Positions 2,585-33,473 of a DNA stretch of 64,000 nucleotides are shown here, in pieces. Position 1 is the first letter of the stretch, and each line of letters begins with the position of its first letter. Source of the stretch: Escherichia coli (GTDB taxonomy: Bacteria; Pseudomonadota; Gammaproteobacteria; Enterobacterales; Enterobacteriaceae); NCBI RefSeq assembly GCF_013315695.1, contig NZ_CP054353.1; one strand, written 5' to 3'. Both the position numbers and the translations under genes were made by a program. The notes beneath the pieces were generated by a model. The model did no database searches and had not been told where the DNA came from. It saw nothing but the letters and a program-made list of their open reading frames with translations.

Positions 2585-2629
2585 AATATGAACTTTAACT
2601 TTTAGTCATTTTATAAAGAGGACATTTTC

Positions 2630-2921
2630 ATGAATCGTATTGAACATTATCATGACTGGTTACGTGACGCCCACGCAATGGAAAAGCAAGCCGAATCTAT
2701 GCTTTAATCCATGGCCAGCCGTATAGATAATTATCCTGAACTACGCGCTCGTATTGAACAACATCTTAGTGAAACCAAAAACCGATTGTTCAACTGGAAA
2801 CTATTCTTGATCGTAATGACATTTCACGTTCAGTCATTAAAGATTCCATGAGTAAAATGGCTGCGCTTGGGCAGTCAATCGGTGGTATATTTCCTTCTGA
2901 TGAAATAGTCAAAGGCTCTAT
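2630..2921 (+). pseudogene. yciE: yciE remnant: in-frame stop, -1 frameshift and truncation by IS1
   Basis: ATG at 2630 gives MNRIEHYHDWLRDAHAMEKQAESML then TAA at 2705-2707; same frame continues SMASRIDNYPELRARIEQHLSETKN; homologous reading resumes in another frame (VQLETILDRNDISRSVIKDSMSKMAALGQSIGGIFPSDEIVKGS) and runs into the IS1 end at 2922. Confidence 0.7.
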
Positions 2922-2976
2922 GGTGATGCTGCCAACTTACTGATTTAGTGTATGATGGTGTTTTTGAGGTGCTCCA

Positions 2977-3252
2977 GTGGCTTCTGTTTCTATCAGCTGT
3001 CCCTCCTGTTCAGCTACTGACGGGGTGGTGCGTAACGGCAAAAGCACCGCCGGACATCAGCGCTATCTCTGCTCTCACTGCCGTAAAACATGGCAACTGC
3101 AGTTCACTTACACCGCTTCTCAACCCGGTACGCACCAGAAAATCATTGATATGGCCATGAATGGCGTTGGATGCCGGGCAACAGCCCGCATTATGGGCGT
3201 TGGCCTCAACACGATTTTACGTCACTTAAAAAACTCAGGCCGCAGTCGGTAA
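2977..3252 (+). CDS. insA: IS1 InsA
   Basis: 91-aa product [39 protein letters not shown]... Confidence 0.95.
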
Positions 3253-3674
3253 CCTCGCGCATACAGCCGGGCAGTGACGTCATCGTCTGCGCGGAAATGG
3301 ACGAACAGTGGGGCTATGTCGGGGCTAAATCGCGCCAGCGCTGGCTGTTTTACGCGTATGACAGGCTCCGGAAGACGGTTGTTGCGCACGTATTCGGTGA
3401 ACGCACTATGGCGACGCTGGGGCGTCTTATGAGCCTGCTGTCACCCTTTGACGTGGTGATATGGATGACGGATGGCTGGCCGCTGTATGAATCCCGCCTG
3501 AAGGGAAAGCTGCACGTAATCAGCAAGCGATATACGCAGCGAATTGAGCGGCATAACCTGAATCTGAGGCAGCACCTGGCACGGCTGGGACGGAAGTCGC
3601 TGTCGTTCTCAAAATCGGTGGAGCTGCATGACAAAGTCATCGGGCATTATCTGAACATAAAACACTATCAATAA
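3171..3674 (+). CDS. insB: IS1 InsB frame (expressed as InsAB' by -1 frameshifting)
   Basis: 167-aa frame overlapping the insA 3' end; sequence typical of IS1 transposase. Confidence 0.9.
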
Positions 3675-3888
3675 GTTGGAGTCATTACCGTGATAAACAT
3701 CCGGTTTCTTCCACCATCGCACCGGACAGGCGACTATGAGGGGACAACGCCGCGCTCCGTTAACGCGGTAAACCCCGGTGTGTATCGTTTTTGATTATCC
3801 CCGCACACTCGCGCAGAGGAGTCTCCCTGTCGGGCTGCGGTCTCTGTTAATGAGGGAATACAGCGACGATACGGCGCATCAACAAAAC

Positions 3889-4356
3889 TTATTTCAGGCA
3901 CTGAGTACGGATATATTCCTGCGCCCCTTCCAGTTGCTTCTGCATCGTCATCAGCCGCTCTCTGAGGGTGAAATAATCCCGTGTAACGGTGTCTGCCAGT
4001 TGGGGGCCGGTTGCATTATCCACGCGGGCGGTGCCGGTGGCTTCACGCACGGGACCTGGACAGGTGGCGTTGATACGCAGGCGCTTACGACCAGCGGCAA
4101 CGTCAGCGCGAAGAGTTTCATTTTCAGCTTTCGCATCAGCTAACTCCTTCGTGTATTTTGCATCGAGCGCAGCAACATCACGCTGACGCATCTGCATGTC
4201 AGTAATTGCCGCGTTCGCCAGCTTCAGTTCTCTGACATTTTTGTCGCGCTGGGCTTTGTAGGTAATGGCGTTATCACGGTAATGATTCAGCCCCAGACTA
4301 AGCGCACCACAGGCCACCAGCAGGGCAATGATGACCACGCACAGTACGCGGTTCAT
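3889..4356 (-). CDS. Rz i-spanin
   Basis: 155-aa product with N-terminal TM segment ([16 protein letters not shown]) and coiled-coil-like periplasmic part; contains an embedded Rz1 frame. Confidence 0.85.
3951..4136 (-). CDS. Rz1 o-spanin lipoprotein, embedded in Rz in another frame
   Basis: 61-aa frame with signal peptide plus lipobox-like LVVSAC and a proline-rich mature part. Confidence 0.7.
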
Positions 4357-4357
4357 T

Positions 4358-4456
4358 TCACCACCAGCGTATCTGACCGATGAAATAACCGGAGGCCATA
4401 ATCACAAACACCAGCCAGATAAGAATGAACTTCCAGGTGGATAATTTTTCAGCCAT
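4358..4456 (-). CDS. putative 32-aa single-TM peptide, translationally coupled to Rz
   Basis: ATG preceded by GGGAG at 9-nt spacing; product [32 protein letters not shown]; its TGA lies 1 nt before the Rz ATG. Confidence 0.35.
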
Positions 4457-4654: not shown

Positions 4655-5188
4655 TTATCTGTCGATTCCCCAGCACGCCAGCGCGCTCTCCTGGTCACGA
4701 CGGGATACCTGACCATAACAGTTGTTTGAGCGGATACGGCAGTCTCTGCCACCGTCCTTAATCCACCAGCGAATCGCCTCACACGCTCCCCTGCGATCAC
4801 CTGCATTAATTCGTTTATAAAACGTCGACGGGAAACACTTACCGGGACCAATGTTGTACGGACAGAATGACGCGATCCCCGCTTTCTGGGGTTCACTCAA
4901 TGGCACTCTGATGTTTTTCTCCACCCATGCCAGCGCCTCATCACGCTCAATGGCGTTAACCCGGTCGCATTTTTCCTTCGACAACTTCATGCCCGGAACG
5001 ACAGGTTTGCCATCCACCAGGATGGCACCGCGGCAGATGGTCCAGATACCCGCACCATCACGGTATGCCGTGGTGTGGTTACCTTCCTTTTCATCCAGAA
5101 ACTGGTCGAGAATGTCAGGCGCAGGCGCACCAGCGGCAATCAGCGCCAGAACGGCAGCCGACAGGCCGTATCTGATTTTTGCGTTCAT
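4655..5188 (-). CDS. SAR endolysin (phage lysozyme, T4-lysozyme family)
   Basis: 177-aa product; N-terminal weakly hydrophobic signal-anchor-release segment (YGLSAAVLALIAAGAPAP) followed by a lysozyme-like domain. Confidence 0.85.
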   Translation of the reverse strand: MNAKIRYGLSAAVLALIAAGAPAPDILDQFLDEKEGNHTTAYRDGAGIWTICRGAILVDGKPVVPGMKLSKEKCDRVNAIERDEALAWVEKNIRVPLSEPQKAGIASFCPYNIGPGKCFPSTFYKRINAGDRRGACEAIRWWIKDGGRDCRIRSNNCYGQVSRRDQESALACWGIDR

Positions 5189-5293
5189 GGATATTTATCA
5201 GGATTTATCGGTTTCTGAGCCCTGGATATGTTTATCAGTTCCAGCCTGTTGCCTCAGGCTGCTAACAGGTCAATACAATCATGAGGATTATTT

Positions 5294-5566
5294 ATGGACA
5301 ATAACACCATTTCTCTACAGGAGTTGCTCGACAGCATTTCCAGGCTTCGGGAAGACGTGAATACCCTTACCGTCGCCTTCTCATATCTGGCATTCTCAAT
5401 TCCAAGGGAACAGATGCAATCAACGCTGGCATCAATCCAGTTTGAATCATGCAATCCCAAATGGTCTCAGGAACAACAAGACTCTTTCAGGCGGCTTGCT
5501 GTATTACTGGATGAAAAATATGCTGGTAAAATTACCATTTCGGCGGACTCTTCAGAGAACCCGTAA
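5294..5566 (+). CDS. hypothetical protein (90 aa), opposite strand to the lysis genes
   Basis: ATG with GAGGA 6 nt upstream; no recognised domain; 3' end overlaps the convergent 114-aa ORF by 35 bp. Confidence 0.4.
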   Translation: MDNNTISLQELLDSISRLREDVNTLTVAFSYLAFSIPREQMQSTLASIQFESCNPKWSQEQQDSFRRLAVLLDEKYAGKITISADSSENP

Positions 5567-5876
5567 TTATTCCCGGTAGTTTTCCTCTGTAGGTTATCAA
5601 CACATCCTGCGCCTCTAAAATTACGGGGCGCTTTTCCGGCGACTGCTCATCCCCTTCACATAACCCGGCAGCAACATCCAGGAAGACCTGTCTGATGCTC
5701 CTTCTGGCTGCTGCCTCATAAAACTCCAGCGCGGCACCTTCAACACGGTCCAGCGAGATGTCCAGGTCAAAAATTTCACCGTCAAAGCGTTTTTTGTCCC
5801 GTAACGCTAAAGTTACCGTAACTTTATTCTCAAAATTGCGGATCCCTTTCACAATCAGTTCATAGTTTTGAGTCAT
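5532..5876 (-). CDS. hypothetical protein (114 aa) immediately downstream of the holin
   Basis: ATG 4 nt after the holin stop with GGGGAGAG as SD; soluble-looking product MTQNYELIVKGIRNFENKV...; no recognised domain. Confidence 0.55.
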   Translation of the reverse strand: MTQNYELIVKGIRNFENKVTVTLALRDKKRFDGEIFDLDISLDRVEGAALEFYEAAARRSIRQVFLDVAAGLCEGDEQSPEKRPVILEAQDVLITYRGKLPGIITGSLKSPPKW

Positions 5877-5880
5877 TGAA

Positions 5881-6096
5881 TTACTCTCCCCGTGCAGCCT
5901 TACGACGGTCCTCTCTGATTTTGAAATACAGGTTAGTCAGATATGTCAGCAGCCCAAACAGCAGACTCCCCAGCACGCCTATTGCCGCCCACTGAGACGG
6001 GGAAACCCTGTCCAGCAACTGCAGGAACCAGTAGCCCGTTCCCACCGCTGACGTGGTGTATGACACACCTGTTGTGATTTTTTCCATCTGGTACAT
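5881..6096 (-). CDS. class II pinholin, phage-21 S-like, dual start (71-aa and 68-aa forms)
   Basis: [13 protein letters not shown]... with two in-frame Met codons 3 codons apart (starts at 6096 and 6087); two TM segments; C-terminus ...[14 protein letters not shown]; ORF-track ORF extends to 6174. Confidence 0.8.
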
Positions 6097-6131
6097 ACCC
6101 CGTCTCCCGTTATCCGGAAGCTGACAACAAT

Positions 6132-6162
6132 AAAAAAAGCCACCAGTTAAGTACTGATGGCT
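6132..6162 (-). terminator. intrinsic terminator between esterase and holin
   Basis: On the minus strand, a 10-bp stem (one mismatch) followed by TTTTTTTATT. Confidence 0.45.
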
Positions 6163-6246
6163 CTGATAACTCATGCAGGCATCTCAGACGACCCACTGAC
6201 ACTACCGGTGAGTTTAACGATACCTTCCATTTGGCTGGCTCACTTT

Positions 6247-8100
6247 TTATGATGATGCCGGTGCATTTATCTCCAGCACCAGACTTTCTATCTCAACGCC
6301 ATACGCTGCATTTTTGGTAATATCCGTCAGCGTCAGCGCATTCAGCCCCAGTGTCAGACTGTCTTTTATGACCTGGAATGCCGGGCCAGCCACTCCATTC
6401 AGTTTCGGAGTAACCGTGGCACTGCCGGCGGTGAACACCAGCTCCAGCGTCTGCCAGTCGTTACTGTAATTCCCGAACTCGCCCAACTTTGTGTTTCCTG
6501 CTTTCTTGTGATGCATCAGATTCAGTTTGCCGTCTGTGGTCTGGGTGAAGAACGACATCAGGAACGGGTTACCAGTCCCGGTCATCGCCACGACGTCAGG
6601 TAACGCTACATCGGTATACAGATAAATTCCCAGACCGAACTGGTTGTTGGTCAGTGCGCCTGACAGTCGAAACTTACAGCTCAGTCTGCCACCCCGTGTC
6701 AGCAGGGAGACTGCGTCATCCACCGGGCGCGTCAGGGACCAGGCTTTATTGCTCTGCTTGGTGATCTTAAATACACCATCTGACAACTGAATTCCGCCAT
6801 TCTTAATGCTCCAGCCCTGCGCAGCAGCGTCTCCGGCTGTCGGCAACAGGGAGATTGTGCGTATGGATGCATCTTCAGACGGCCCCGATGGCGTGTCGCC
6901 GCCGGGCGAGGGTTTGATTTCCGGTGCCTTACCACTAATGAAGGCTAAGGTGCGACCGGCTACGTTCAGAATAGCAGTTGCCATACGATCGGGAATAATG
7001 CCACGACGCGCCCATGAGCTGAAATGCGTCGGGCGATTTGATGATACCCAGTTTTTGTTCGTTCGGGATGCCGAACCGTAATAACCAGACCCGGCAATAT
7101 CAGGATCTTCTGACGGGTTGTTTGTCGGTGTATTAACTCCGCTACCATCGGTCATAAAGGGAACAAAATAAATCTGCTGGGATTCTTTACCTTTATATGC
7201 ACCATATACCACTTCATATTGCGTACCGTGTTCTTGTTTCCACGCGTATGTCGTGTCGCCACAAATCCAGGGGACTGATGCCGGACTTCCACCGTGACAC
7301 TGCGCCGCCAGCCCGGCAAGGTCAGCACGGAACTGCTGTACCATTGCAAGAAATGCTGCTGGCTGCTGGGCGTAACTGGCATTCGTCATATCGAATTCCC
7401 CCTGCATCCAGCATATCGCCAGCAAAACGTTTTTCGGGTTTTTCTGCAATGCTGCCTTCGTGCGGAAAAGCAGATCCTGATATAACGGCTTACCCACTCC
7501 CCAGCGAGCCGAATCCTGACTGGCTCCCGTGGACTCGCTGAATGTCCCCTCCGTGCCCTGGGTGAATGCCGAACCACCACGACAGCATGGTACCAGCAGG
7601 ATCCCCGCATTATTAGGGATATACGGAAGCAGTTTTTTGGCAATATGTAAGCCCTGTCCGACACAGCCGTACTGCCCTTTGCTCAGGTCAGCCCGGGGAT
7701 GGTTAATCGTACTCATATCCTGAACATCATGCAGACAATGGTCAGCAGGAATGATGTCGTTAAATACGCATACTTCACCACCGGGAGTCACTGTGTTACG
7801 ACGGGCCAGTTGCTTAATGCGCGGATGGGGCGCATCGTATGAATCCGGAAGCGGAAGCCCTTCACCGTAAGCCATGGCATTGGATTGCCCGGCCAGTACG
7901 ATGACGTAGTACCACTCCGGCTCAGTTGCACCACTGACGACCACATCACCTTCTGCTGCAATCGCCTGCATCAGGGTATAAGGGGTTATGGCCACCGGAC
8001 TACCAAACGGCTGCCAGCCCTCCTTCAGTTTTTGTGTCAGTCGTTTCGCAAGGTCTGACGGCGATGCCGCCCTGACCACGTCATAGTGTTTAAATGCCAT
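6247..8100 (-). CDS. prophage sialate O-acetylesterase-like SGNH hydrolase (NanS-p-like)
   Basis: 617-aa product; LAGQSNAMAYGEG block typical of SASA/SGNH esterases; GGGAGGA SD 5 nt upstream; position between tRNA genes and holin as in Stx-type lambdoid phages. Confidence 0.65.
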   Translation of the reverse strand: MAFKHYDVVRAASPSDLAKRLTQKLKEGWQPFGSPVAITPYTLMQAIAAEGDVVVSGATEPEWYYVIVLAGQSNAMAYGEGLPLPDSYDAPHPRIKQLARRNTVTPGGEVCVFNDIIPADHCLHDVQDMSTINHPRADLSKGQYGCVGQGLHIAKKLLPYIPNNAGILLVPCCRGGSAFTQGTEGTFSESTGASQDSARWGVGKPLYQDLLFRTKAALQKNPKNVLLAICWMQGEFDMTNASYAQQPAAFLAMVQQFRADLAGLAAQCHGGSPASVPWICGDTTYAWKQEHGTQYEVVYGAYKGKESQQIYFVPFMTDGSGVNTPTNNPSEDPDIAGSGYYGSASRTNKNWVSSNRPTHFSSWARRGIIPDRMATAILNVAGRTLAFISGKAPEIKPSPGGDTPSGPSEDASIRTISLLPTAGDAAAQGWSIKNGGIQLSDGVFKITKQSNKAWSLTRPVDDAVSLLTRGGRLSCKFRLSGALTNNQFGLGIYLYTDVALPDVVAMTGTGNPFLMSFFTQTTDGKLNLMHHKKAGNTKLGEFGNYSNDWQTLELVFTAGSATVTPKLNGVAGPAFQVIKDSLTLGLNALTLTDITKNAAYGVEIESLVLEINAPASS

Positions 8101-8294
8101 GAATCCTCCCGGGCGGGATAATGTTGTGAGTCAGATAAGGAGCAGGCTGAAGTCCGGAAGTTACAGGACAATGGCAGAAGGGAGACTACAGCCCGCAATT
8201 CGAAAAAGACCGCGCAGTTGCGCAGAGTGATTACTATGGGGTATTATTCGCCAGCTGAAATATTACTTCACGTTTTATTGTTTATTCCTTGCCG

Positions 8295-8322
8295 CCCGCG
8301 TCTCCCAGCGCGGGCTTTTTTT
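8295..8322 (+). terminator. plus-strand intrinsic terminator
   Basis: CCCGCG-loop-CGCGGG hairpin followed by a T7 run. Confidence 0.4.
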
Positions 8323-8325
8323 GTC

Positions 8326-8562
8326 CATAAGAAAGCCCCTCCGGAGAGGGGCTAAAGCCGCGTATCTGTATCATCATGCACATGGTGCCGGGTGCCTCCC
8401 GGTGAGTTCAGCCCGGTGCCACTAAACCCGCGTCATTCTCGTTTTGATAATCAGAGATTATACCGTCACCAGTCGCCCCTCCGCTCAGGGGGATTCACCA
8501 TGCGAAATTTTTTTAACAAATGCCCAGTCTGACAGGCAACTGTCAACTTACTGAATTGTGAG
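8326..8562. repeat. direct repeat copy A (about 237 bp) in the late operon
   Basis: Shares with copy B the blocks AAAGCCCCTCCGGAGAGGGGCT, CATGGTGCCGGGTGCCTCCCGGTGA, GCCCCTCCGC-CAGGGGGATTCACCATGC, TTTTAACAAA and CTGAATTGTGAG. Confidence 0.6.
8335..8352 (-). terminator. hairpin GCCCCTC-CGGA-GAGGGGC with downstream U-rich tract on the minus strand (repeat A)
   Basis: Perfect 7-bp GC stem; in minus orientation followed by TTTCTT. Confidence 0.45.
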
Positions 8563-8812
8563 CAACATAGCATTTAACGGGGAACCTGTTTTCTGCAGTA
8601 AAAAGGCCCACCGGAGCGGATGGGCCTGGAAGGATAGCGGTCATGTGATGCCGGTTTCCCGGTAACTCAGCACCGGTATCTGAGTCAACGTTTTCTCTAC
8701 TGGGTCATTTCCGATACGCCCTGCCTGCTGACAGGCTTTCATCACATCTGAAAATATAGCACCCTGACTGATACTGTAGTACCTAAGGTTCCAGAAACTG
8801 TGATGTATCCGG

Positions 8813-9038
8813 CACAGAAAAGCCCCTCCGGAGAGGGGCTGGAGAGTGGCGCTATGTGCCATTGCATGGTGCCGGGTGCCTCCCGGTGAATTCAGTACCA
8901 GCACCTGAATCCGCGATTATCCCATATACCTACTCGCTGATTGCCCCTCCGCACAGGGGGATTCACCATGCCAGTTTCTTTTAACAAACTCCCCGCAAAC
9001 CAGACAACAGTCAACCGCCTGAATTGTGAGACATTTAA
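8813..9038. repeat. direct repeat copy B
   Basis: Imperfect copy of repeat A about 480 bp away. Confidence 0.6.
8822..8839 (-). terminator. hairpin GCCCCTC-CGGA-GAGGGGC with downstream U-rich tract on the minus strand (repeat B)
   Basis: Same hairpin as copy A; in minus orientation followed by TTTTCT. Confidence 0.45.
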
Positions 9039-9074
9039 AAAAAGCCCGCAAAAGCGAGCCAGGGAAAATAAGTG

Positions 9075-9151
9075 TGGCGCGTTGTACTGGATTCGAACCA
9101 GTGACCGATTGCTTAGAAGGCAATTGCTCTGTCCGGCTGAGCTAACAACGC
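9075..9151 (-). tRNA. tRNA-Arg (anticodon UCU)
   Basis: Manual fold of the reverse complement: acceptor GCGTTGT/ACAACGC, D-arm GCTC/GAGC, anticodon stem ATTGC/GCAAT with loop CTTCTAA, T-arm ACTGG-TTCGAAT-CCAGT, discriminator G, CCA encoded. Confidence 0.8.
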
Positions 9152-9164
9152 AGGATACAGATAA

Positions 9165-9241
9165 TGGACCGCCTTCGGGGACCCGAACTCCGCGCAACCA
9201 GCTTCGAAAGCTGGCGCTCTTTCCTGATGAGCTAATGGCGG
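9165..9241 (-). tRNA. tRNA-like gene, Arg-type (anticodon UCG by manual fold), possibly degenerate
   Basis: D-arm TAGCTCATCAGGAAAGAGC, anticodon stem CCAGC/GCTGG with loop TTTCGAA, CCA encoded; one mismatch in the acceptor stem and one in the T stem; T-loop TTCGGGT is non-consensus. Confidence 0.5.
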
Positions 9242-9248
9242 TATGTGA

Positions 9249-9324
9249 TGGTGGCCCTTGCTGGATTTGAACCAGCGACCTGGCGATTATGAGTCGCTCG
9301 CTCTCACCACTGAGCTAAAGGGCC
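9249..9324 (-). tRNA. tRNA with CAU anticodon, ileX-like (tRNA-Ile2/lysidine type; could be Met)
   Basis: Acceptor GGCCCTT/AAGGGCC perfect, anticodon loop CTCATAA, T-arm GCTGG-TTCAAAT-CCAGC, discriminator A, CCA encoded; closely resembles E. coli ileX from memory. Confidence 0.8.
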
Positions 9325-13534: not shown

Positions 13535-13690
13535 TTACTCCTCAGGTTCGTAAGCTGTGAAGACAGCGACCTCCGTCTGGCCGGTTCGGAGTCGTACCTC
13601 GCAGAGGTCTTTCCTCGTTACCAGTGCCGTCACTATGACGGTTAAACAGATGACGATCAGGGCGATTAACATCGCCTTTTGCTGCTTCAT
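13535..13690 (-). CDS. hok: Hok/Gef-family type I toxin (HokD-like)
   Basis: 51-aa product MKQQKAMLIALIVICLTVIVTALVTRKDLCEVRLRTGQTEVAVFTAYEPEE; the ORF-track ORF carries a 19-codon in-frame upstream extension. Confidence 0.85.
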   Translation of the reverse strand: MKQQKAMLIALIVICLTVIVTALVTRKDLCEVRLRTGQTEVAVFTAYEPEE

Positions 13691-13927
13691 AGCCTGCTTC
13701 CCCTTGCCTTTCGGCACGTAAGAGGCTAACCTACATTTGTGAGACATAGATTGGGCCTCAGATTAATGTTAAGCGTCTTGCAGGACGCGAAATGTTAACT
13801 GGGGCTTTTCTCTATCTGCCTTTCAGTGTTCATGCCTGAGACAGATAGCCTCAAGCACCCGCAGCCATTCTACTTAACTCACGTCACCTCGCCAATATGA
13901 AATCAATCAGAAAGGTGATCCATAAAA

Positions 13928-20017: not shown

Positions 20018-20588
20018 TTCACCCTCCTGAGGGTTGGTAATTAAGGAGTTCTCCACGGGTCAGGTGGAGTGCGTGCGCCGGACACGGGTGAGCATCCGGC
20101 ACTGACAGCTTACTGAAAGGATATGTCCCTGAAAAGTCAGGGCATAACGCGAAAGCGCACGGCGAAATTGGTCTCTCTGTACGGTGTCGTTAAATTTAGT
20201 TCGACCGTGCGCTTCCGGTTGTGGCACTCCGCGAAATGGCGCGGCGGTAAGTATGGCTGGGGTTTCCTCCATTGCTCCAGAAAATGCACCGGGTTGTCAG
20301 GTTGACCATACGCTTAAGTGACAACCCCGCTACAACGCCCTCTGTTATCAATTTTCTGGTGACATTTGGCGGTATCAGTTTTACTCCGTGACTGCTCTGC
20401 CGCCCTTTTTAAAGTGAATTTTGTGATGCGGTGAATGCGGCTATGCGCACGCGGAACAGTTAAAGCAGTAAGGCGGTATTTTACGGGCGTAACGAGCATC
20501 AACTAACCCGGCGTTAATTGTTAACTGGTTAACGTCACCTGGAGGCACCAGGCACTGCATCACAAAATTCATTGTTGAGGACGCGATA

Positions 20589-32550: not shown

Positions 32551-33473
<923 letters not shown>

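Follow-up and report, generated by a model that had tools for sequence, protein, structure and literature searches.

What explains two small genes of opposite orientation, overlapping at their 3′ ends, between the holin and the endolysin of an Escherichia coli prophage? The locus lies in a stretch of 64,000 nucleotides (nt) of contig NZ_CP054353.1 (assembly GCF_013315695.1), referred to below as the window, in which an open reading frame (ORF) of 114 amino acids (aa) on the minus strand (5532..5876) converges on an ORF of 90 aa on the plus strand (5294..5566, here ORF90), the two sharing 35 base pairs (bp) at 5532-5566. A sequence-only reading of this DNA had presented them as a linked module of two genes from no recognised family, interrupting a lysis cassette, and had proposed a moron, a toxin-antitoxin-like system or an exclusion function. 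The ORF coordinates confirm the position of both frames, their convergence, the length of the overlap and the location between holin and endolysin. The ribosome-binding sites attributed to each gene are borne out as well: GGAG lies 9 nt upstream of the ATG of the 114-aa gene, which itself follows the holin stop by 4 nt, and the Shine-Dalgarno sequence GAGGA (5283..5287, plus strand) lies 6 nt upstream of the ATG of ORF90. The explanation that we favour, and consider probable with a fair measure of doubt, is that a YdfR-family gene of the late operon and an independent, moron-like single-gene insert were placed tail to tail by recombination. Our confidence is high for the gene calls, the family assignment, the insertion and the independence of the two genes, and low for their function. 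The arrangement is a common mosaic one and not a new two-gene system.

By sequence similarity, the 114-aa protein is clearly a member of YdfR/DUF1327, a known but poorly understood family. It matches the Pfam family DUF1327 (PF07041) with an E value of 7.9e-43, residues 1-111 of the query aligning to positions 1-91 of the 93 in the model, it matches phrog_406 over its full length, and RefSeq names the product at identical loci “YdfR family protein”. The gene lies between a class II holin and a lysozyme, as membership in DUF1327 would lead one to expect. The earlier statement that no family could be recognised thus fails for this gene and survives for ORF90, which matches only phrog_2411 (E 1.1e-58, residues 1-90 of 90), a PHROG to which no function is assigned. 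AlphaFold2 predicts for YdfR an N-terminal beta-beta-beta-alpha domain (aa 1-73; 5658-5876, minus strand) followed by a C-terminal module (aa ~77-114; 5532-5648, minus strand). The predicted local distance difference test (pLDDT) score is 80-91 over aa 11-70, drops to 56 for aa 71-80 and stays under 50 beyond aa 77. The module reads EKRPxILEAQ...ITGSLKxPPKW, and the protein has neither a membrane segment nor a signal peptide. Its closest characterised counterpart is YdfR of the E. coli K-12 Qin prophage (P76160), with 81% identity over the N-terminal 74 residues, the same slot between a class II holin and a lysozyme, and a fold of three strands and a long helix in the AlphaFold description (PMC13232886). 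The K-12 protein differs in its unrelated, helical C-terminus, and its gene overlaps the start of the endolysin and has no adjacent antisense gene.

ORF90 is a real gene under purifying selection, and the signal is far beyond chance. In the part of the frame that overlaps nothing else, the pairwise ratio of non-synonymous to synonymous substitution rates (dN/dS) is 0.10-0.37, and variable sites fall on codon positions 1, 2 and 3 in the proportion 12/8/30. The periodicity persists (5/3/10) in 5461-5531, where only ORF90 is open, and is gone upstream of its ATG (3/6/6). A minus-strand ORF of 68 aa with a TTG start (5254..5460) was considered as the real gene instead and rejected, as it is interrupted by an internal stop in locus L013 and cut short by early stops in three further ones, and codon periodicity is lacking in its C-terminal part. 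The ratio of non-synonymous to synonymous polymorphism (pN/pS) in this antisense frame is also low, at 0.23, because its third codon positions coincide with those of ORF90. Since periodicity is found only where ORF90 is open, and the shadow frame is broken by stops, the plus-strand frame is the gene. Its ATG is conserved among the loci compared, and its Shine-Dalgarno sequence is GAGGA in six E. coli loci and AAGGA in L006. Homologues numbered 62-94, depending on the search, and were found in Escherichia, Shigella, E. albertii, Citrobacter and Brenneria; they keep a length of 90 aa down to 71% identity, measure 83-85 aa at 58-65% identity and stay within 83-92 aa as identity falls to about 47%. 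Foldseek extended the set to Salmonella, Serratia, Pantoea and others, with uncharacterised proteins of 83-99 aa that show 21-31% identity and template modelling (TM) scores of 0.7-0.8.

The product of ORF90 is predicted to be an acidic, soluble, cytoplasmic three-helix bundle. Its isoelectric point is 4.5, the maximum of its Kyte-Doolittle profile in a 19-residue window is 0.75, and no membrane segment or signal peptide is present. The pLDDT of the predicted structure is 74, with a disordered tail over residues 79-90 (pLDDT below 50). No known family was matched in Pfam (queried with one sequence as well as with 25 members), NCBIfam, PADLOC or PDB sequence profiles. Some database entries carry the name “ybl58”, one of them being a frameshifted copy, and no literature on this name was found.

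Pairwise alignment with a cassette devoid of such a gene gives, as the best reading, a single-gene, moron-like insertion of ORF90 into the short spacer between ydfR and the endolysin. Against the cargo-less cassette of phage vB_EcoS-640R1 (640R1), homology covers 5189-5242 and resumes from 5537 at 93% identity, with about 294 bp of extra sequence in between (5243..5536, plus strand). This segment contains a hairpin, candidate promoter hexamers, the Shine-Dalgarno sequence and codons 1-81 of ORF90. The terminal codons of ORF90 and its TAA stop consist of antisense ydfR sequence shared with 640R1; therefore the overlap is a by-product of the insert junction and not a regulatory design. The tail of ORF90 fits such an origin, being the least conserved portion of the protein and predicted to be disordered. 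So does selection in the overlap, which follows the ydfR frame: of the four variable sites there, three are third positions in ydfR codons, and three are second positions in ORF90 codons. The G+C content of ORF90 is 45.1%, against 53-55% in S, R and Rz; that of the segment encoding the YdfR N-terminal domain is also low, at 46%.

Morons in the sense of Juhala and Hendrix are a familiar feature of lambdoid phages, and in lambda the bor gene lies antisense next to the lysis genes. ORF90 resembles them in being one small gene whose presence between conserved neighbours varies and which is directed against the late operon, in differing from its flanks in G+C content, and in varying among otherwise similar phages. 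It differs in having no convincing promoter or terminator in our scans and, compared with bor in particular, in a predicted product that is soluble and cytoplasmic rather than a lipoprotein. As a label, moron is reasonable for ORF90, an insertion of lower G+C content whose relatives move independently.

The distribution of the two genes was followed in 5426 complete E. coli genomes and 50,697 phage records. Sequence resembling ydfR was found in 4304 of the genomes, which makes the earlier statement that canonical cassettes run S-R-Rz without interruption an overstatement, and the full ydfR-ORF90 pair was found in 1128. K-12 Qin, where the gene stands between the holin and rrrQ with nothing opposite, and phage 640R1 carry ydfR without ORF90; the C-terminal module occurs without ORF90 in 640R1, phage 86 and PhiR5_1. 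Conversely, an ORF90 of 72% identity lies between the same holin and endolysin in L006 and L007, where its partner is broken by stops and only the C-terminal module remains readable. In L009, L019 and P0102, the partner of the ORF90 relative is a coiled-coil protein and not DUF1327; in Citrobacter loci and in P0102, the convergent partner has a coiled-coil N-terminus in place of DUF1327 and keeps the C-terminal motif ITGSL(K/R)xP. More distant relatives of ORF90 are found upstream of a holin in L016 and L019, within the immunity region of L018, flanked by genes for an N-type antiterminator and a cI-type repressor, and beside an autotransporter gene in L017, and a partner of the ITGSL(K/R)xP type is not present at L016, L017 or L018. 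In the phage contexts examined, the relatives are oriented against the neighbouring phage genes. Since each gene is found without the other (K-12, 640R1, L006, L016-L018), ydfR and ORF90 do not form a linked module, and that part of the sequence-only reading falls. An apparently odd two-gene module thereby becomes something ordinary and separable, namely a late gene of the YdfR family and a small independent insert. ORF90, under purifying selection, is present in roughly one in five complete E. coli genomes but is encoded in only 3 of the phage records, a scarcity that likely reflects sampling bias towards Shiga toxin (Stx) phages.

If a late gene and an independent insert were joined in this way, ydfR would belong to the Q-dependent late operon and would supply a soluble product with a beta-beta-beta-alpha N-terminal domain. 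A strong hairpin resembling an intrinsic terminator (6136..6164, read 6164..6136 on the minus strand in the direction of the late operon) sits between the esterase gene and the holin, with a stem of 12 pairs followed by the T-run TTTTTATTGTT; from this signal upstream of the holin we infer that S-ydfR-R-Rz depends on Q antitermination to be expressed. The insert would bring its own ribosome-binding site and probably its own weak promoter. Lacking a stop codon of its own, it would let translation of ORF90 continue for 10 codons into antisense ydfR, which would create the 35-bp overlap. Because ORF90 points against the local phage operon in the phage contexts examined, it would most likely be expressed apart from late transcription, for example in the lysogen, and its product would most likely exert its effect through binding to a protein partner. 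A candidate sigma-70 promoter for ORF90 (5249..5279, plus strand; TTGCCT-N19-TACAAT) came out of our own hexamer scan, with 9 of 12 matches and a non-canonical spacing. We also observed a -10-like TATGTT at 5227-5232, standing 9-12 nt before the border hairpin in every cargo-bearing variant and replaced by CAGGTT in the cargo-less one (n=1).

Several phage proteins act on RNase E, among them T7 gp0.7, phiKZ Dip and T4 Srd. YdfR may work in a comparable manner, as a small protein of phage origin that makes contact with RNase E in the course of infection, although it has no sequence or fold relationship to any of the three. The work on K-12 YdfR is the sole functional lead, and it covers the domain shared with the window protein. 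In two-hybrid assays, residues 1-72 of the K-12 protein sufficed to give signals with both RNase E and RNase G, and Strep-tagged YdfR co-purified the RNase E fragment 1-598 together with DNase-resistant nucleic acid (PMC13232886, 2026). Homology makes it most likely that the window YdfR binds RNase E in its catalytic half and/or RNA, and it would through such binding adjust host or phage RNA turnover in lytic growth. The common YdfR slot of Stx-like and Qin-like prophages is tied in this way to the report on YdfR and RNase E, which suggests a role in RNA turnover at lysis.

A number of points weigh against the combination of a late YdfR gene with an independently expressed insert. Binding to RNase E and RNA is reported for the K-12 paralogue only, whose C-terminus differs, and overproduction of that paralogue altered few transcripts, so that a role in RNA turnover is unproven (PMC13232886). 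The transcription start site expected from the candidate promoter, at ~5286, would remove most of the Shine-Dalgarno sequence, and the promoter was not found by a stricter standard scan. Nor did the scan give a plus-strand terminator between 5566 and the holin gene; the only such site (6055-6069) is a weak one within the holin gene. Moreover, ORF90 is linked with the YdfR C-terminal module in several Escherichia and Citrobacter loci, where physical and functional linkage are inseparable, and the predicted disorder of the module when alone would also be compatible with its folding on a partner, for instance ORF90.

The last of these points belong to an alternative in which the genes are a functional pair, ORF90 binding the otherwise disordered C-terminal module of YdfR and neutralising or regulating it in a toxin-antitoxin-like, immunity-like or regulator-target relationship; as a variant, ORF90 made in a lysogen could block the YdfR of a superinfecting relative. 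Homologues of ORF90 in E. coli and Citrobacter do recur with a convergent ITGSL(K/R)xP partner, even where its N-terminus is a coiled coil, and the low pLDDT of the module modelled alone is what such a pair would show. However, the ITGSL(K/R)xP motif overlaps or abuts the 3′ end of ORF90, and the linkage is expected from proximity alone. The modules of 640R1, phage 86 and PhiR5_1 without ORF90, the partnerless relatives in L016, L017 and L018, the stop-broken partner in L006 and the selection in the overlap, which follows ydfR and not ORF90, all speak against a pair. The toxin-antitoxin or defence function suggested earlier is not supported either: PADLOC, NCBIfam and Pfam gave no match to a known toxin, antitoxin or defence profile, the genes are convergent rather than arranged in an operon, and K-12 YdfR caused no growth defect when overexpressed (PMC13232886). 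Compared with a type II toxin-antitoxin system, such as the ParDE pair by the endolysin in L006, the two genes are alike in being small, adjacent and in an accessory position of a prophage, and they are unlike it in being convergent and independently distributed, in matching no family and in having a non-toxic YdfR paralogue. We therefore regard a functional pair as unlikely.

Judged from a multiple alignment of the spacers, the junction of ydfR and the endolysin is a hotspot that swaps unrelated small antisense genes. The 44 bases next to the endolysin start (5189..5232, a leader without an assigned strand) are common to all slot variants, including one without a small ORF, and the variants diverge beyond them. 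Other antisense ORFs in the same slot measure 104 aa in phage 86, 86 aa in PhiR5_1 and 79 aa in strain NC101, where the neighbouring YdfR proteins are of 268, 211 and 104 aa, respectively. These cargos fall into distinct PHROGs without known function, and PADLOC gave no defence match for them. Common ancestry of ORF90 with the cargos of phage 86 and PhiR5_1 was rejected (hhalign probability <1% each), and the “DUF1823” label on the PhiR5_1 ORF was not significant (E 0.042). A bolder proposal, to which we give a slim chance, is that ORF90 would be the founding member of a family of small helical prophage proteins of Enterobacterales, expressed in the lysogen, which exclude superinfecting phages, counter host defence or modulate the interaction of YdfR with RNase E, with the ydfR-endolysin junction serving as an exchange hotspot for at least four unrelated cargo families. 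Should one of the cargos prove to exclude phages or to counter defence, more such factors could usefully be sought in the slot. Another accessory slot, just downstream of the endolysin, is shown by L006 and L007, in which a ParE-like toxin and a ParD-like antitoxin (2589-3123, minus strand) lie between the endolysin and a Rha/antirepressor-type gene.

Could both genes rather be lysis-timing accessories of the pathway formed by a pinholin and a signal-arrest-release (SAR) endolysin, for instance as an antiholin-like protein or a regulator of endolysin release? The position of ydfR between holin and endolysin is kept in thousands of genomes, and a genome-wide screen cited in PMC13232886 places ydfR among the genes that affect envelope integrity. 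Yet holin and endolysin act in the membrane and the periplasm, and neither YdfR nor the ORF90 product has a membrane segment or signal peptide; ORF90 is, in addition, antisense to the late operon and has relatives outside lysis cassettes. Profile searches found no homology of either protein to a known antiholin, releasin or spanin. We find this proposal improbable and retain the combination of a late YdfR gene and an independent insert. What the sequence-only reading had named as its own refutation did not arise, as the 90-aa frame is conserved and YdfR is not an established lysis accessory protein.

The hairpin that the sequence-only reading had placed at 5241-5262 exists, one base narrower at each end. 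It is a perfect inverted repeat of 7 bp with a 6-nt loop, without an assigned strand, at the R-proximal border of the insert (5242..5261; CAGCCTG at 5242-5248 pairing with CAGGCTG at 5255-5261), and by itself it is within what chance would produce. At the window's frequency of one perfect 7-bp stem per 810 bp, the 105-bp spacer is expected to contain 0.13 of them, and the folding z-scores are -1.9 to -2.0, 7-10 of 200 shuffles folding equally well. Homologues keep 5-6 of the 7 pairs, their substitutions breaking one or two pairs without compensation. The hairpin was also considered as an intrinsic terminator and rejected: it has no T-run, the stem being followed by CTAACAGG on the plus strand and by GAACTGAT on the minus strand, and the terminator scan was silent. 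A different, conserved hairpin, CCCGCCAGTGGTAGGACACTGGCG, often followed by TTT, stands at the equivalent place before unrelated antisense ORFs and before Citrobacter relatives of ORF90 (L003 at 2140-2165, L005, L014, L008, L009, L019 and L017). In this second hairpin 87% of the cells are paired and one change is compensatory, and it is not distinguishable from shuffles. Hairpins recur at this border, and they may act as a 5′ element of the cargo transcript or as part of the late mRNA, ahead of the endolysin.

That 5294-5566 acts through an antisense transcript, which would interfere with expression of ydfR or the endolysin from the late mRNA, the frame being secondary or an artefact, would suit the convergent transcription over the ydfR 3′ end, the 343 nt of the late strand between ydfR and the endolysin that are untranslated and lie opposite ORF90, and the hairpin at the same border in each slot variant, but it is very improbable in view of the purifying selection at the protein level, the length conserved across 47-99% identity, the conserved ATG and GAGGA-type Shine-Dalgarno sequence, the Foldseek relatives with the same fold in other Enterobacterales and the absence of an Rfam match at the locus.

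The remainder of the lysis cassette lies on the minus strand. The holin (5881..6096, 71 aa; phrog_20 and phrog_9876) is labelled “class II holin family protein” by RefSeq at identical loci. Its mechanical ORF reaches 6174 (5881..6174); the protein begins MYQMEK..., with a Met1/Met4 dual-start motif, and a start at 6096 is most likely. Compared by eye, it is identical to the 71-aa holin of L006 (PF04971), and by homology it would be a pinholin of the S21 type. The endolysin (4655..5188, 177 aa) belongs to the lysozyme family (phrog_7, with PF00959 on the L006 homologue), and its Gly/Ala-rich hydrophobic N-terminal stretch suggests the SAR type. An Rz-like inner-membrane spanin (i-spanin; 3889..4356, phrog_13) follows, and the ORF list gives an Rz1 frame embedded in it (3951..4136). 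About 200 bp beyond the Rz stop lies an IS1 element (2977-3674, plus strand; insA 2977..3252 and insB 3171..3674, NCBIfam NF033558), and therefore the late region of the prophage is interrupted just after the lysis cassette.

Some further observations concern relatives of the two proteins. A repetitive protein of 3128 aa (P0110) matches YdfR with an E value of 4e-10 through six weak DUF1327-like stretches, at 31% identity to residues 7-75; this similarity may be a repeat artefact or the mark of a distant domain relative. By the ORF90 relative in L018, genes for two proteins, one of 103 aa with hydrophobic segments and one of 130 aa whose start resembles a signal peptide (3696-4389, minus strand), stand between the cI-type repressor and the N-type antiterminator, the usual site of exclusion genes.

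On the other side of the holin, the late region (6247-9324, minus strand) is arranged as in a Stx phage, with Met, Arg and Arg tRNA genes at 9075-9324, two copies of the small RNA STnc100 (8323-8532 and 8810-9000) and an esterase of 617 aa of the SASA/NanS-p type (6247..8100, minus strand). No ORFs of stxAB size lie between the tRNAs and the esterase. Elsewhere in the window, Rfam matches were obtained for the sok antitoxin RNA (13685-13860, minus strand), DicF (20354-20405, plus strand) and isrC (32619-32741, plus strand), small RNAs that are typical of lambdoid or Qin-like prophages.

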